A stretch of 8,463 nt of DNA from a virus. Taxonomy: Duplodnaviria; Heunggongvirae; Uroviricota; Caudoviricetes. Positions 1,942 through 8,463 of this stretch are shown piece by piece. The notes under the pieces were generated by a model. That model did not search any database. It was given only the letters and a program-made list of their open reading frames with translations, and was not told the DNA's origin. A program made the translations under genes and the position numbers. The stretch lies in the IMG/VR virus record IMGVR_UViG_3300000096_000017; one strand, 5' to 3'. Position 1 is the stretch's first letter. The number at the start of each line of letters is the position of its first letter.

Positions 1942-2943
1942 TTAAGGCTTCGGCTTTTTATCGAGGCTCTTTCTAAGGATATGCCCAATCATCCTGTCGA
2001 GTTCTTCCTGTAGCTCTTTTGAAAGTCGATTAAACTCATAAGAAAATGCACGGCCTTTCACGCGCTTCCTTGCAAAGCGATCCTTGTCCTCAAATTTCCA
2101 TAATTCAGTAACTACGGACTTATCTTTAGAACCTTTATCCGTGAGTAGTGAGGCTTCCTTTGTTATCAAGCGCAGGATTTTATTTTTAACTTCATCTTCG
2201 GCCATTTCTTCAATGGATAAGATGTCGTTTATTTCCGGGGATATGTTTTGAATAAGCTGATCAAACTCTAAATTCTTGTTCCCCATTTCGTCGCCAACAG
2301 CACAAAGCGTTTTGTAGTCCGAAAAGGTTAATTCCGACTGCACAGGGAAAAGGGCGACTAATTCTTCCGGAGCACTCGCTGCCTGGAGAGCACGCGTGAC
2401 CTTCGCCTGAGACAGCCCTTCTTTGGCTGCAATATCCTTCTGACTCATCCCATCATTTTTCATTCGCATCAAACGCAGACCTATTTCTCGAATGCTGTGC
2501 TGCAATGCTGTCTGAACGTCTTTCGCTAAATTTTGCGCTTCCTGAACGCTGATCTCCTGGTCCGTGACTAAAACCCGCAACCCTACGTTCTCTAAGATGG
2601 CAGAAGCTCGACGCCGGGAACCATCCAAAATTTCAATTTTCCCTGTAGCCCGTCTAACACCTATTGCAGGGTAAAATTGCTGATGCTTAATAGTGCTTCG
2701 GATACTTTTTAATGATTTTGGCGTAAGAGATGCCTGGTCACGCCCGTTGTTATGCTGATCAACAAAGGTATCGCTTTCTACCTGGTTCGGAGGTATTACC
2801 TCTTCAATAAATGTGGCCTGGCGACCAGTTGATAACTTGAATACCTGCTCGACTCGATCGCCAGAGGCTGAAGAACTATCAAATCCGCTTAATATTGAAG
2901 GATTAAGGGTTCGCCCAATTGTTGGTCTGTTTTTCTTTGACAT
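1942..2943 (-). CDS. parB: ParB centromere-binding partition protein, 333 aa
   Basis: ATG start at 2943, TAA stop at 1942-1944; lies 16 nt downstream of parA with GGAG immediately after the parA stop. Length, position directly upstream of parS, and the translation (MSKKNRPTIGRTLNPS...) match what I recall of P1 ParB. Confidence 0.95.
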   Translation of the reverse strand: MSKKNRPTIGRTLNPSILSGFDSSSASGDRVEQVFKLSTGRQATFIEEVIPPNQVESDTFVDQHNNGRDQASLTPKSLKSIRSTIKHQQFYPAIGVRRATGKIEILDGSRRRASAILENVGLRVLVTDQEISVQEAQNLAKDVQTALQHSIREIGLRLMRMKNDGMSQKDIAAKEGLSQAKVTRALQAASAPEELVALFPVQSELTFSDYKTLCAVGDEMGNKNLEFDQLIQNISPEINDILSIEEMAEDEVKNKILRLITKEASLLTDKGSKDKSVVTELWKFEDKDRFARKRVKGRAFSYEFNRLSKELQEELDRMIGHILRKSLDKKPKP

Positions 2944-2959
2944 GGGGGTTTCTTACTCC

Positions 2960-4156
2960 TCAGTTAGATCTGATAAATTCAATACGGTCAAAAACTGCTT
3001 TAGCAAAATCTTCCGCAGCAATTCGCGCGTTCTTCAATGCATCAGCACTACCAACATACGTTGCCGGGTTAGCTGAAATAACAGTGTCAAAAGACTCGCC
3101 GCAGCGTTCAAAACCGTCAAGGCGAGGGAGGACAACATCAAGCATATCCCCACCGAACACTTCTTTAGCCAGGCTATGGCAATACTTATGGTCTGCCTTG
3201 TTACTCAACTTGGACATAAAACCAATGTTAGTTGCAAGCTGACACTCGCAGCCTTCATCCGAAATGAGTTTCACCAACTCAGGAAGGCGGGCAACGTATT
3301 TAAGCGATGAGTGGAAATCAACCGTTGCAGGCGGCAGAGGTGTAAACAGTATATTGGCCGAGGCCAAAGCATTTTTCAGGAAGGCGTCAAGGTGAGGACC
3401 ACTATCAACGAGGATAAAGTCATAATCGCTCTTCAGCTTATCAATCACATTTTCTTTCAGGACTGCATGGATGTTCTGACCCGGTAGATGCTCATTGCAC
3501 AGCTCTCTCCAATCGGATGCAATAAAGGCATCGTCAATCGACGCAGGCATAACGTCAACCCCAGGTACAACAGAAGGAACAATAAACTCCTCTAACAGCT
3601 CTTCACGGCTTACATTCTGCAACATAGCCTGTGCAGATGTTGCGTTTACGATACCAATAGAGTGTTTATGGCTTAAAAACATCGTTGCTGAAGATTGCGG
3701 ATCAAGGTCAATAACCAGAATCCTTAAATCTTCCATCAGAAGATGAGGATGAGCACGCATTGCATGCGCCAGAGAAACCGTCGATACAGTTTTTGACACA
3801 CCGCCTTTAAGATTGGAGATGAAAATCACATACGCTTCGCTGTAGCGATCCCGGTATTTTGGCACTCCGCGATGTTCATATATGTCAATGATGTTCTGAA
3901 TTGACATCGCATATTTCATTGAAGAGCCAGCAGGGCGTTTATCGAAAACATAACCCTTTTCTTCCATTTCACTTACGGCATAGTCAACGTTCGCACGAGT
4001 CAGTAGAGGCAATTTTGCCAGTGCCGCTTTCGCATAGACCTGGTAAAACTCGTTCGCGTGTAGCTCATCCTTTTGCAACTGTACTTGTTCAGTCAGAACA
4101 TTGAGCATTCTATTTGCTCTTTGAGCAACCTTGTGAAGCTGGCTGGAATCACTCAT
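2960..4156 (-). CDS. parA: ParA partition ATPase, 398 aa, type Ia with N-terminal DNA-binding extension
   Basis: ATG at 4156 preceded by AGGA at 9-nt spacing. Deviant Walker A motif KGGVSKT within NLKGGVSKTVST, and a ~100-aa N-terminal extension typical of autoregulatory type Ia ParA. Translation (MSDSSQLHKVAQRANRML...) matches my recollection of P1 ParA. Confidence 0.95.
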   Translation of the reverse strand: MSDSSQLHKVAQRANRMLNVLTEQVQLQKDELHANEFYQVYAKAALAKLPLLTRANVDYAVSEMEEKGYVFDKRPAGSSMKYAMSIQNIIDIYEHRGVPKYRDRYSEAYVIFISNLKGGVSKTVSTVSLAHAMRAHPHLLMEDLRILVIDLDPQSSATMFLSHKHSIGIVNATSAQAMLQNVSREELLEEFIVPSVVPGVDVMPASIDDAFIASDWRELCNEHLPGQNIHAVLKENVIDKLKSDYDFILVDSGPHLDAFLKNALASANILFTPLPPATVDFHSSLKYVARLPELVKLISDEGCECQLATNIGFMSKLSNKADHKYCHSLAKEVFGGDMLDVVLPRLDGFERCGESFDTVISANPATYVGSADALKNARIAAEDFAKAVFDRIEFIRSN

Positions 4157-4169
4157 CGAAAGTCATCCT

Positions 4170-4209
4170 TTATGCTGTATTTTTGAATTTAATTAAAAAT
4201 GCTGCATAA
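4170..4209 (-). promoter_or_regulatory. par operator/promoter region (imperfect 40-bp inverted repeat)
   Basis: TTATGCTGTATTTTTGAATT (4170-4189) is a near inverse complement of AATTAAAAATGCTGCATAA (4191-4209), with 2 mismatches and 1 indel, in an AT-rich stretch 14-53 bp upstream of the parA ATG. In P1, ParA binds a large imperfect palindrome overlapping the par promoter. Confidence 0.55.
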
Positions 4210-4296
4210 AATAATAATGTATGCGTAGATGCTTGTACATAGCATTCTCTGCATGTTTGGTTCATTTTGCACGATTGAGAGTTACAAGGAGGGCAC

Positions 4297-4317
4297 AAAA
4301 AAGCCCCGTTCAGGGGC
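4297..4317 (-). terminator. Rho-independent terminator after the 269-aa gene
   Basis: Stem GCCCC (4303-4307), loop GTTCA, stem GGGGC (4313-4317), starting 8 nt past the stop codon at 4325-4327. On the minus strand the hairpin is followed by a TTTTTT run (plus A-run 4297-4302). Confidence 0.6.
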
Positions 4318-4324
4318 ATCAGTG

Positions 4325-5134
4325 TTATTTGCTAAGAGCAGCGAATAATCGTTCGAAATCGATAGTATCTATAGCACGCGTAAGCGCCGGAAGTTCAGCC
4401 TCAAAGTACCCGTGTCGATCGTAAAAGAAGGGACCGAAGAGCGAGGCATGTTGGATTCTACTTCGCCCCAGCCCGGACACACAGTTAAGCCCATTACCGG
4501 CTAAAAGGCTAAAAAACTTCTCTGGATTATCGTGGTAAAGCTGGGAATCAATGGTGGCGGTTAACTCTTCCATAGGGAAGCACACCCGCCCTGTATCCCA
4601 GGGATATTTAGTCCGAAGCATAAACATTGCTTTCAGCAATTCACATTGAGCGCGGATCGCGTCCGGTTCATAGCCAGATATGGAGACATAAGCCACGTCC
4701 CTCATTCCTGCGTCATCTTTGAAAGTCACGATAGAAGTAACATCCAGCTCTTTTTCGAAAGAGCAAGCAGCATCTACTGGACGCTGAAGTAAATCATTCG
4801 ACTTAATGCGCTCGAGAATCCCTCCCCACATATCATTTAGATATTCGATATGAGCCAAAACCTTATCAAGACACTCTCGTGTAAACCATTCAGTATGCCC
4901 GCCACCGGCGCTTTTCTCCCACGGCGCATTCCAGGGGAAAAAGGTTGCGTGTAAAGCCCGCTCAAGATTAACCATTGCCAAACGCGTACCACGATAGACC
5001 CGTGAAAGCGCAAAATCGGGACTCACTTGTAGCCCTTTAAACCGTGCCAATGGACCACATGAAATGCCGATTTTAAAAGTATCTCCGTTCTCTGGCACCA
5101 GAACGTAGAGGTAGTGTTGTTTCTCTTCTTGCAT
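4325..5134 (-). CDS. Standalone 269-aa protein with GIY-YIG-like (T5orf172/MUG113-type) N-terminal domain and uncharacterised C-terminal domain
   Basis: ATG at 5134, TAA at 4325-4327, own terminator downstream. Residues 8-25 YLYVLVPENGDTFKIGIS fit the GIY-x(9-11)-YIG spacing, followed by a conserved-position Arg (GPLAR), LERALHATF and GGGHTEWF, matching the pattern I recall for T5orf172-type domains. The C-terminal ~170 aa have no motif I recognise. Weak ribosome-binding site. Confidence 0.75.
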   Translation of the reverse strand: MQEEKQHYLYVLVPENGDTFKIGISCGPLARFKGLQVSPDFALSRVYRGTRLAMVNLERALHATFFPWNAPWEKSAGGGHTEWFTRECLDKVLAHIEYLNDMWGGILERIKSNDLLQRPVDAACSFEKELDVTSIVTFKDDAGMRDVAYVSISGYEPDAIRAQCELLKAMFMLRTKYPWDTGRVCFPMEELTATIDSQLYHDNPEKFFSLLAGNGLNCVSGLGRSRIQHASLFGPFFYDRHGYFEAELPALTRAIDTIDFERLFAALSK

Positions 5135-5167
5135 ATCAATACCACTGCTTGATGAGAACCGCGCAAA

Positions 5168-5425
5168 TGTTGACTATGCGCGAAGGTTAATGTGAATAGT
5201 TGACTATGCGCGATGTGACTACAGTCAAAAGTTGACTGTAGTCGATTTAACTCCACCAAAGATCGACTATGTAAGATATTGTCGGGAGAAACGTTGACTA
5301 TACGCGATGAAATGCCCCTAAAAGCCATCTCAATAGCGACTTGCAGAATATTGACGCCAGCAAAAATCCACCAGCGTCAACGAATGTCGCCTATAGTCAA
5401 CTTCTCGCTATCGCATATAGTCAAT
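5168..5425. repeat. incA-like iteron array downstream of repA, about 9-10 copies in both orientations
   Basis: Core AGTCAA/TTGACT with flanks matching the origin iterons. Reverse-orientation copies at 5168-5183, 5198-5214, 5231-5243, 5293-5308 (perfect reverse complement of an origin iteron) and degenerate 5263-5275, 5348-5360. Forward copies at 5217-5228, 5388-5401, 5410-5425 and degenerate 5372-5385. Confidence 0.8.
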
Positions 5426-5426
5426 A

Positions 5427-6311
5427 TTATGGATTGCGCTTATGGATCTGGAAGCCGATTTTCCTGCCGTTTTTTATCTCTGAAAATTTAAGATATTCAA
5501 TAGCTTCCAAATCTTTCATGGCTTTTCTGATAACGCTATTTTGCACGCTAACGGATGATTTGAGATTAAGCCTCGCTCTAAGGCGCTCAATGCTGACAGG
5601 TGCCGGGTTGGCGGGTAGAGCCTCAAAGAATGTATACAGTACCTTGGCCGTCTCTTTGCGCCCTAGTTTATCCAGCATCTTCAGCTTCAGGATTCGCTTA
5701 TAGTCAACATAGTAAAGTTCAGATAGCTGTTTCTGCGGCTGGATCTCGATAACATCAAGCTCGGTATTCAGGCTGCTATATGCCAACAAGTTGACGTTAA
5801 TGTTATTGAGATGACCTTTTGCCGCCGGGAAGCGGAATTTGACAACTGTCTGCTGAATGCGTGTCAGAGAGTCATCAATACTTTTACGGAACGCCTTTGA
5901 AAGGCGCTTACGTGGATAGCCGCATCGATCGGCAAACTCGGAGAATGGCAGGGTGATTATGCCGTCATCATCAGGTGCGTAGTCAAACAACGCGGAGGTT
6001 ATGCCCACCCACACCTTAAAATCAGTATCCATATCCAGGCGTGGACCATGAATTTCAATTCCCTCATAGCCTTCCTGCTCAACAATTTTGAGGCTTGATA
6101 GTTCTTCAGTTGCGTTCGTTGTGTTTGTTGTAACTGACGATCCGCGACGTAGCGCCACATTGGTAGATTTTAAGGTTGGCACAAACACACCTAAGCGCAA
6201 CAAAGCGATGGGTTGTATAGTGCTGTTGTTATTGGGCTTCAGGCTGTGGATTTCTCCTGTATTTCCTGCAACTTCTTCAACGCTAAGGAAGCCTTTACTT
6301 TCTTCCGGCAT
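5427..6311 (-). CDS. repA: Iteron-binding replication initiator RepA, P1 RepA family
   Basis: Track ORF 5427..6347 starts at TTG; an in-frame ATG at 6311 is preceded by GGAG at 8-nt spacing (GTG at 6314 also possible), giving ~294 aa. Motif-by-motif similarity to P1 RepA as I recall it (QPIALLRLGVFVP, GPRLDMDTDFKVW, YTFFEALPANPAPVSIERLRARL, C-terminal HKRNP) but clearly diverged. Flanked on both sides by iterons. Confidence 0.9.
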   Translation of the reverse strand: MPEESKGFLSVEEVAGNTGEIHSLKPNNNSTIQPIALLRLGVFVPTLKSTNVALRRGSSVTTNTTNATEELSSLKIVEQEGYEGIEIHGPRLDMDTDFKVWVGITSALFDYAPDDDGIITLPFSEFADRCGYPRKRLSKAFRKSIDDSLTRIQQTVVKFRFPAAKGHLNNINVNLLAYSSLNTELDVIEIQPQKQLSELYYVDYKRILKLKMLDKLGRKETAKVLYTFFEALPANPAPVSIERLRARLNLKSSVSVQNSVIRKAMKDLEAIEYLKFSEIKNGRKIGFQIHKRNP

Positions 6312-6359
6312 CACGGTTTCTCCATGTGTGGCGCGGCCTGACGTCAATTTGGATGGCTG

Positions 6360-6603
6360 TTATCAACAGCTGTGAATATTCAGACTCTAAAATCGCTTAC
6401 AGTCAATGTTTCTGTCGCGTATAGTCAACAATAAATCGCGTGCAGTCAACAATAAATCGTGCACAGTCAACATAAAATCGCGTATAGTCAATGTTGATCC
6501 CATTTCAGGCCAGTAATGACGCGGCTTACAGCGATCCGGGATCTTCTTTGGATCTTCCTAGGTTCTCTTTAGGATCTGTTTATTGGATCTATGCTGTGGA
6601 TAA
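6360..6603. other. Vegetative plasmid origin (oriR-like): DnaA boxes, GATC cluster and iterons
   Basis: Perfect DnaA box TGTGGATAA at 6595-6603; six GATC sites at 6496, 6533, 6540, 6551, 6573 and 6586, several in a GGATCT context; the five iterons; and an 8/9 DnaA-like box TTATCAACA at 6360-6368 between iterons and repA. Same module order as P1 oriR. Confidence 0.7.
6392..6493. repeat. Origin iterons: five direct repeats of ~17-19 bp at 21-bp spacing
   Basis: Copies at 6392-6408, 6415-6430, 6435-6451, 6456-6472 and 6477-6493, consensus approximately ATCGCGTRYAGTCAAYR, all in the same orientation. AGTCAA cores start at 6401, 6423, 6444, 6465 and 6486. Confidence 0.85.
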
Positions 6604-8339: not shown

Positions 8340-8374
8340 TTCTTCTGCAAGCAGTTTTGGGTGATGCTGCCAAC

Positions 8375-8463
8375 TTACTGATTTAGTGTATGATGGTGTT
8401 TTTGAGGTGCTCCAGTGGCTTCTGTTTCTATCAGCTGTCCCTCCTGTTCAGCTACTGACGGGG
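8375..8463 (-). CDS. 3' end of an upstream minus-strand gene (partial, start beyond window)
   Basis: A different minus-strand frame is open from the window edge to TAA at 8375-8377 (…PSVAEQEGQLIETEATGAPQKHHHTLNQ*). Only 29 codons are visible, so this is weakly supported. Confidence 0.3.
   Translation of the reverse strand, partial: PSVAEQEGQLIETEATGAPQKHHHTLNQ

Follow-up and report, generated by a model that had tools for sequence, protein, structure and literature searches.

The locus considered here raises the question of whether a perfect palindrome whose arms share sequence with the surrounding iterons is a regulatory site in its own right or a by-product of the way in which the iteron array evolved. 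In the window, by which we mean the whole 8,463-nt stretch of DNA that was analysed, positions 5217-5243 read GACTACAGTCAA-AAG-TTGACTGTAGTC. The preliminary description reported an exact 27-bp palindrome at this position, and this is correct: the reverse complement of 5217-5228 equals 5232-5243, so that the arms match at 12/12 positions across a 3-bp spacer. The palindrome lies 83-109 bp upstream of the ATG of a gene for a 269-aa protein, because this open reading frame occupies 4325-5134 of the minus strand, in agreement with the distance of about 85-110 bp given previously. Measured from the stop codon of repA (5427), its position is 184-210 bp downstream. When arms of at least 12 bp and loops of no more than 10 nt were required, the window contained only two perfect inverted repeats (5217-5243 and 1851-1879), and arms of at least 12 bp appeared in one of 200 dinucleotide-preserving shuffles. 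The single-stranded DNA fold of a 41-nt stretch over the palindrome has an energy of -11.6 kcal/mol (z = -5.6).

Hundreds of plasmids of E. coli, Salmonella and Shigella share more than 99% identity with the window, as do P1-like phage-plasmids including RCS47, SJ46 and JL22. The genes on the minus strand encode, in order, P1 gp23, ParB and ParA of the P7 type, the 269-aa T5orf172/GIY-YIG-like protein and a Rep_3-family RepA, after which come UpfA, Mlp, PpfA and UpfB. Comparison with P1 itself showed that the repA-incA module is replaced in the window. The replicon is of the type named p0111, one of the two replicon types in P1-like phage-plasmids (PMC9603915, PMC5241659). Its initiator gene, repA, occupies 5427-6311 of the minus strand and encodes 294 aa from an ATG, with a possible TTG start at 6347. 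The Pfam profile Rep3_C matches the protein with 27.1 bits, above the cut-off, and Rep3_N lies just under its cut-off.

A 15-bp iteron, TTGACTRTRCGCGAT, occurs in 12 copies that score 23-32 bits on one position matrix, five of them at the origin, six in the array downstream of repA and one inside repA. The five origin iterons, the equivalent of incC, are located at 6392-6491 on the minus strand with a spacing of 21-22 bp. The rest of a P1-type oriR lies at 6530-6603 on the same strand, with a DnaA box (TTATCCACA, 6595-6603) and a cluster of GATC-containing repeats. The iteron within the repA coding sequence (5693-5707, 25.3 bits) has the origin orientation, and an iteron is retained at the matching place (about 3613-3630) in the 84%-identical repA of L088, another P1-like element. 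Downstream of repA, two proximal iterons are also in the origin orientation on the minus strand, one directly past the stop codon (5410-5424) and the other at 5386-5400. A degenerate iteron-like element on the minus strand, TTGACGCTGGTGGAT (5366-5380), forms a third proximal site and is conserved in all four lineages, that is, in p0111 and in the three sister lineages described below. Five distal iterons lie farther from repA on the plus strand, opposite to the origin orientation, with start-to-start spacings of 30, 32, 31 and 31 bp. These are iteron 1 (5170-5184), iterons 2 (5200-5214) and 5 (5294-5308), iteron 3 (5232-5246), and the degenerate iteron 4 (TCGACTATGTAAGAT, 5263-5277, 7.2 bits). 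The 269-aa gene starts 35 bp past the outermost of them. Iteron 1 is missing from variants of the same lineage (L003, L036 and L043) in which a precise 30-bp deletion (5170-5199 of the window) leaves four distal iterons rather than five, and four is also the count in the sister lineages L050 and L088. Thus, the number of control iterons varies by unit-length recombination.

The term incA-like array, used for this region in the preliminary description, holds. Origin-type iterons lie downstream of a RepA that is homologous to that of P1 (42% identity, E = 9e-71), and P1 incA shares the plan of an inverted distal group, at a spacing of about 31 bp (about three helical turns), and an origin-oriented proximal group; the term is therefore a fair one. 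The order of oriR (DnaA box, GATC cluster and five iterons), repA, downstream array and par operon is common to both replicons. They differ in that P1 incA has nine 19-bp iterons in groups of 6 + 3, whereas p0111 has 5 + 2-3, and in that the iteron core is GATGTGTGCTGGAGGGAAA in P1 and the 15-bp TTGACTRTRCGCGAT in p0111. In addition, p0111 has an extra T5orf172 gene between the array and parA, and it has an inverted half-iteron between iterons 2 and 3 that has no counterpart among the nine annotated P1 incA sites, to which this comparison was confined. RepFIB (F, P307, pO157) is similar in that its repA, whose product is about 45% identical to the p0111 RepA, has iterons on both sides, the upstream BCDD' and the downstream E-K iterons. 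The downstream block of RepFIB is the control and incompatibility determinant, and the downstream iterons alone suffice to displace a FIB plasmid (PMC11983097). The iterons themselves differ from those of p0111, and no iteron-derived palindrome is described for this block (PMC11983097). In the literature searched, no palindrome is described in RepFIB or P1 control arrays, and p0111 iterons are not mentioned in the literature searched on P1-like phage-plasmids (including PMC9603915 and PMC5241659). The array of p0111 is an undescribed but ordinary control array of the P1 incA/RepFIB class. Homology supports the prediction that it lowers copy number and exerts incompatibility through RepA titration and handcuffing. 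An array much larger than those of P1 and p0111 was seen in a Proteus mirabilis contig (L053, RepA 53% identical), in which about 22 tandem iteron-like units lie downstream of repA (3920-4420) and alternate, at about 21 bp, between GTTGAAGCAAGACGAT and GTTAACGCTGGACGAT. Inverted copies follow farther on, and among them is a pair arranged head to head, about 12 bp apart.

The palindrome of p0111 had been regarded as two opposed iteron cores. Comparison of the arms with the iterons showed that they are not equivalent, the dyad being made up of one full iteron and one inverted, out-of-phase half-iteron. Distal iteron 3 (TTGACTGTAGTCGAT), whose first 12 bp make up the right arm, is in phase with its neighbours and scores 23.4 bits when the matrix is derived from the remaining 11 iterons. 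The same 12-mer recurs as an origin iteron in L088. The left arm (5217-5228, minus strand) repeats the 12-mer that opens the neighbouring iteron, in inverted orientation, and occupies the 17-bp spacer that separates distal iterons 2 and 3. Both arms contain TTGACTGTA, the 5' half of the iteron. The left arm consists of this half plus GTC, without the conserved CGAT half or the flanking bases preferred in iterons, and is out of phase with the array. It scores -3.7 bits on the position matrix, compared with 23-32 bits for all 12 iterons.

Three sister lineages keep the iteron consensus and the array layout of p0111, and the palindrome is absent from each of them. The spacer before iteron 3 is AAAATGGCTATCAAAAG in pHum4b (L004, 80% nucleotide identity), AATGGCTTACAACTAATG in L050, L056, L057 and two PLSDB plasmids (RepA 85% identical), and GGAAAAATGCTTATG in L088 (RepA 84% identical). 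With three sister replicons devoid of the palindrome, there is therefore no sign of a conserved regulatory switch. The comparison with pHum4b is weakened because its repA looks fragmented. In this IncHI2 plasmid, the repA homologue (about 2790-3700) has no long open reading frame and is represented by fragments of 70 and 117 aa; the replicon copy may be decaying, or the assembly may contain frameshift errors. A scan of IMG/VR for the iteron-pair pattern yielded two extra loci only, both of the L050 type, and a search of genome contigs with RepA yielded a single identical locus and no added diversity. No intermediates between p0111 and its sisters were found by tblastn of the L050-type RepA against PLSDB or by blastn against complete E. 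coli genomes, so the conversion cannot be dated.

The direction of the change is apparent from the spacers. The motif AAAATG(G)CT(T)AT is common to the spacers of the three sister lineages, AAAATGGCTATCAA being a sister spacer in place of the p0111 left arm; the motif is therefore ancestral and the left arm of p0111 is derived. After the spacer, L050 has the iteron TTGACTGTACTCGAT at the homologous position and L088 has TTGACTGTACGCGAT; the right arm of p0111 is thus close to the ancestral form. No other 12-nt stretch of the array is as diverged as the left arm (8/12 positions, compared with a mean of 21%). In pHum4b, the homologous position already holds the short inner dyad TCAA-AAG-TTGA, with the 3-bp spacer AAG found at the dyad centre in p0111 (5229-5231) and the inner TCAA and TTGA on its two sides. 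Each of the six differences between the left arm and pHum4b creates a base complementary to the right arm, a pattern with a probability of about 0.0014 under random substitutions. Template-switch mutations associated with quasipalindromes are well established in E. coli and phage genetics, and their signature is a cluster of simultaneous changes that perfect a pre-existing quasipalindrome. The p0111 palindrome resembles them in its pre-existing short dyad and in having its substitutions clustered in one arm, each of them bringing it closer to full complementarity; it differs in that the event is deduced from comparative sequence only. On this evidence, the left arm is most likely the product of a single template-switch event during replication. 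A template switch can account for a perfect palindrome without selection, which does not in itself prove neutrality, and complementary substitutions are also expected under selection for the dyad.

Variation within the p0111 lineage was analysed in 79 loci from IMG/VR, metagenomes and plasmids. The exact palindrome is present in 75 of them, and the remaining ones are of two variant types, GACCACAGTCAA in the left arm (T5220C, two loci) and TTGACTGTAATC in the right arm (G5241A, one locus). Both variants disrupt a pair, and neither carries a compensating change. The iteron cores are constrained, with 3 segregating sites in 105 positions, compared with 27 in 175 in the spacers (Fisher p = 6e-4). 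The corresponding test of the left arm (1/12) is powerless because the lineage is nearly clonal. The array is present in 409 of 5426 complete E. coli genomes, in all but one at an identity of at least 95%. The palindrome is thus nearly fixed in a very successful lineage, and weak selection may therefore act on it. A separate variable segment directly precedes the start codon of the 269-aa gene: ten segregating sites fall within 24 bp (5139-5162), a density far above that of the rest of the intergenic region. A module junction is suggested here by the end of the homology with pHum4b near 5147.

Taking these observations together, we lean towards the view that the palindrome is a templated by-product without a separate role, a young and lineage-specific quasipalindrome in an ordinary incA-type array. 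The best-surviving alternative is that a RepA dimer binds the two facing TTGACT half-sites, 9 bp apart from centre to centre, through its C-terminal winged-helix domains. The palindrome would then serve the control array as a dimer sink or an enhancer of handcuffing, or it would be the operator of the 269-aa gene. The preliminary description had pointed out that initiator dimers bind inverted repeats related to iterons, and this is borne out for F RepE and pPS10 RepA (PMC13028717, PMC4857107, PMC2367726). The arms of the Rep-dimer operators (F repE, pPS10 repA, pSC101 and R6K) reproduce one half of an iteron, as both arms of the p0111 palindrome do with the TTGACTGTA half. An inverted half-iteron is the exact design of the operators of F and pPS10, and the two half-sites of the palindrome are about one helical turn apart. 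The near fixation of the dyad in the p0111 lineage also argues for a dimer site. However, such operators are placed upstream of rep, at its promoter, and act to repress the gene (PMC13028717, PMC4857107, PMC2367726), whereas the p0111 dyad is located inside the control array, downstream of repA and away from the repA promoter and leader (6311-6391). No promoter toward the 269-aa gene was detected in the scan described below. Moreover, the dyad is unconserved among replicons with the same iterons (pHum4b, L050/L056/L057 and L088), including L088 with its homologous downstream gene, and the natural variants break it without compensation. In RepFIB, autoregulation by Rep proceeds via the interaction of Rep with iterons (PMC11983097).

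A second inverted repeat derived from iteron sequence, TTGACGC-N15-GCGTCAA (5352-5380), might reflect a trend instead of chance. It is found in p0111 only, with its left arm at 5352-5358 and its right arm in TTGACGCTGGTGGAT; the left arm is derived, as pHum4b and L088 carry ATGG(G)CGAC there. The half-sites of this repeat face outward across a 15-bp gap, a geometry opposite to that of the dyad at 5217-5243. Thus, a single dimer geometry is unable to fit both inverted repeats. Dimers of P1 RepA are not known to bind DNA. Binding of a RepA dimer to the palindrome is therefore considered unlikely, and it is doubtful indeed that the p0111 control array gained a true RepA-dimer site in the form of an inverted half-iteron beside iteron 3. 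The operator or special handcuffing role proposed in the preliminary description is accordingly unsupported rather than refuted, given the location downstream of repA, the failure to detect a promoter, the lack of conservation and the uncompensated variants. Binding of RepA dimers would add a modestly new element to iteron control. It would constitute the first dimer site of the operator type inside an incA-type array of a P1-family replicon, and the control locus would sense or sequester inactive RepA dimers, which could tune copy number or link the RepA level to expression of the downstream T5orf172 gene by read-through.

A dimer operator at the repA promoter was considered separately and rejected. 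The leader contains the palindrome TGACGTCA (minus strand, 6337-6346), which overlaps a TTGAC half-site, but this is present in p0111 only and is not conserved in pHum4b, L050 or L088. The leader also contains, at about 6355-6372, a DnaA-box-like sequence, TGTTGATAA, inside the short dyad CAGCTGTTGATAACAGC. The box is kept as TGTGGATAA in L050 and L088.

The search for promoters and terminators covered positions 5000-6600 and was complemented by manual reading of the minus strand. No sigma-70-like promoter toward the 269-aa gene was found on the minus strand between 5135 and 5430 at a threshold of at least 9/12 matches, and in the best candidate read manually, TTGACT-14 nt-CATAGT, the spacer is too short for a promoter; a weak or unconventional promoter may nevertheless be present. 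With no separate promoter found, co-transcription of the 269-aa gene with repA is possible. The palindrome could then form a hairpin with a perfect 12-bp stem and a 3-nt loop in a minus-strand read-through transcript from repA and affect the stability or processing of the mRNA or the passage of ribosomes or RNA polymerase. The predicted minus-strand fold is stable (81 nt, -26.3 kcal/mol, z = -4.4), and T5220C and G5241A would each retain a G-U wobble in the minus-strand RNA. However, two wobble-compatible transitions out of two have a chance probability of 0.25, and the hairpin presumes read-through transcription from repA and is absent from L088 despite the same gene arrangement. The stem has 5/12 G-C pairs; the sequence after it is ACAUCGCG on the minus strand and GAUUUAAC on the plus strand. 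The lack of a U-tract there shows that the stem is no intrinsic terminator, and the scan of 5000-6600 found none at the dyad. An Rfam scan of the whole window gave no match. A function as an RNA hairpin thus appears very improbable.

It is scarcely credible that the palindrome is a site for another protein, such as the T5orf172 protein or a host factor such as CRP: in PLSDB, the palindrome and the 269-aa gene are both confined to the p0111 lineage, and TGTGA-N6-TCAAA at 5214-5229 matches the CRP core at 9/10 positions, but in this putative CRP-like site a key base is missing from one half-site, the motif has no further copy elsewhere in the window, and L088 carries at the same position a T5orf172 homologue (44% identical to the 269-aa protein, starting 27 bp past the outermost distal iteron) and no dyad. 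L088 rules out a consistent co-occurrence of the palindrome with the gene; as its arrangement matches that of the window, the sole hint of a link between the two is therefore removed. Operators for LexA, IHF and phage C1 were also considered by eye, and none fits; only the CRP-like half-match was seen. The T5orf172 gene called in L088 has 311 aa and begins inside the iteron array (4001-4126). Alignment with the window protein places its real start at the ATG at 4124 (MENDKKYYLYILVPENG...).

If the palindrome is a templated by-product, as we favour, the spacer between iterons 2 and 3 of the ancestral array would already have contained the 4-bp dyad TCAA-AAG-TTGA, and a single template switch during replication would have extended it to 12-bp arms, overwriting the ancestral spacer. 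By analogy with P1 incA and RepFIB, monomers of RepA would bind iteron 3, and with it the right arm, as they would the other control iterons. Iteron 3 would therefore add to titration and to handcuffing with the origin iterons. The array would act via its full iterons with no need for the palindrome, which is probably neutral or at most a minor modulator. A perfect dyad derived from an iteron resembles an operator and calls for caution, since the comparison with the sister lineages shows that it is dispensable for this type of replicon. P1-like phage-plasmids with ESBL and further resistance genes (SJ46, RCS47, JL22) owe their maintenance to the p0111 replicon, whose array is found in about 7.5% of complete E. 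coli genomes. As the iterons are unmentioned in the phage-plasmid literature searched, the map of the origin, the control array, the internal iteron and the deletion variants should be useful for incompatibility-based curing or typing.

Two further features of the window were observed outside the replicon. The longest perfect inverted repeat, AAGGTGAAATCG-TGG-CGATTTCACCTT (1851-1879), has 13-bp arms and lies in the A+T-rich gap between parB and the gp23 gene, where P1 and P7 have parS; it is presumably a pair of ParB boxes of a parS-type centromere. The last 104 bp of the window (8360-8463, GGTGATGCTGCCAACTTACTGATTTAGTG...) resemble the terminal inverted repeat and left end of IS1. Many related plasmids and phages match the window only up to 8359, and an IS therefore seems to interrupt the upfB-like open reading frame.
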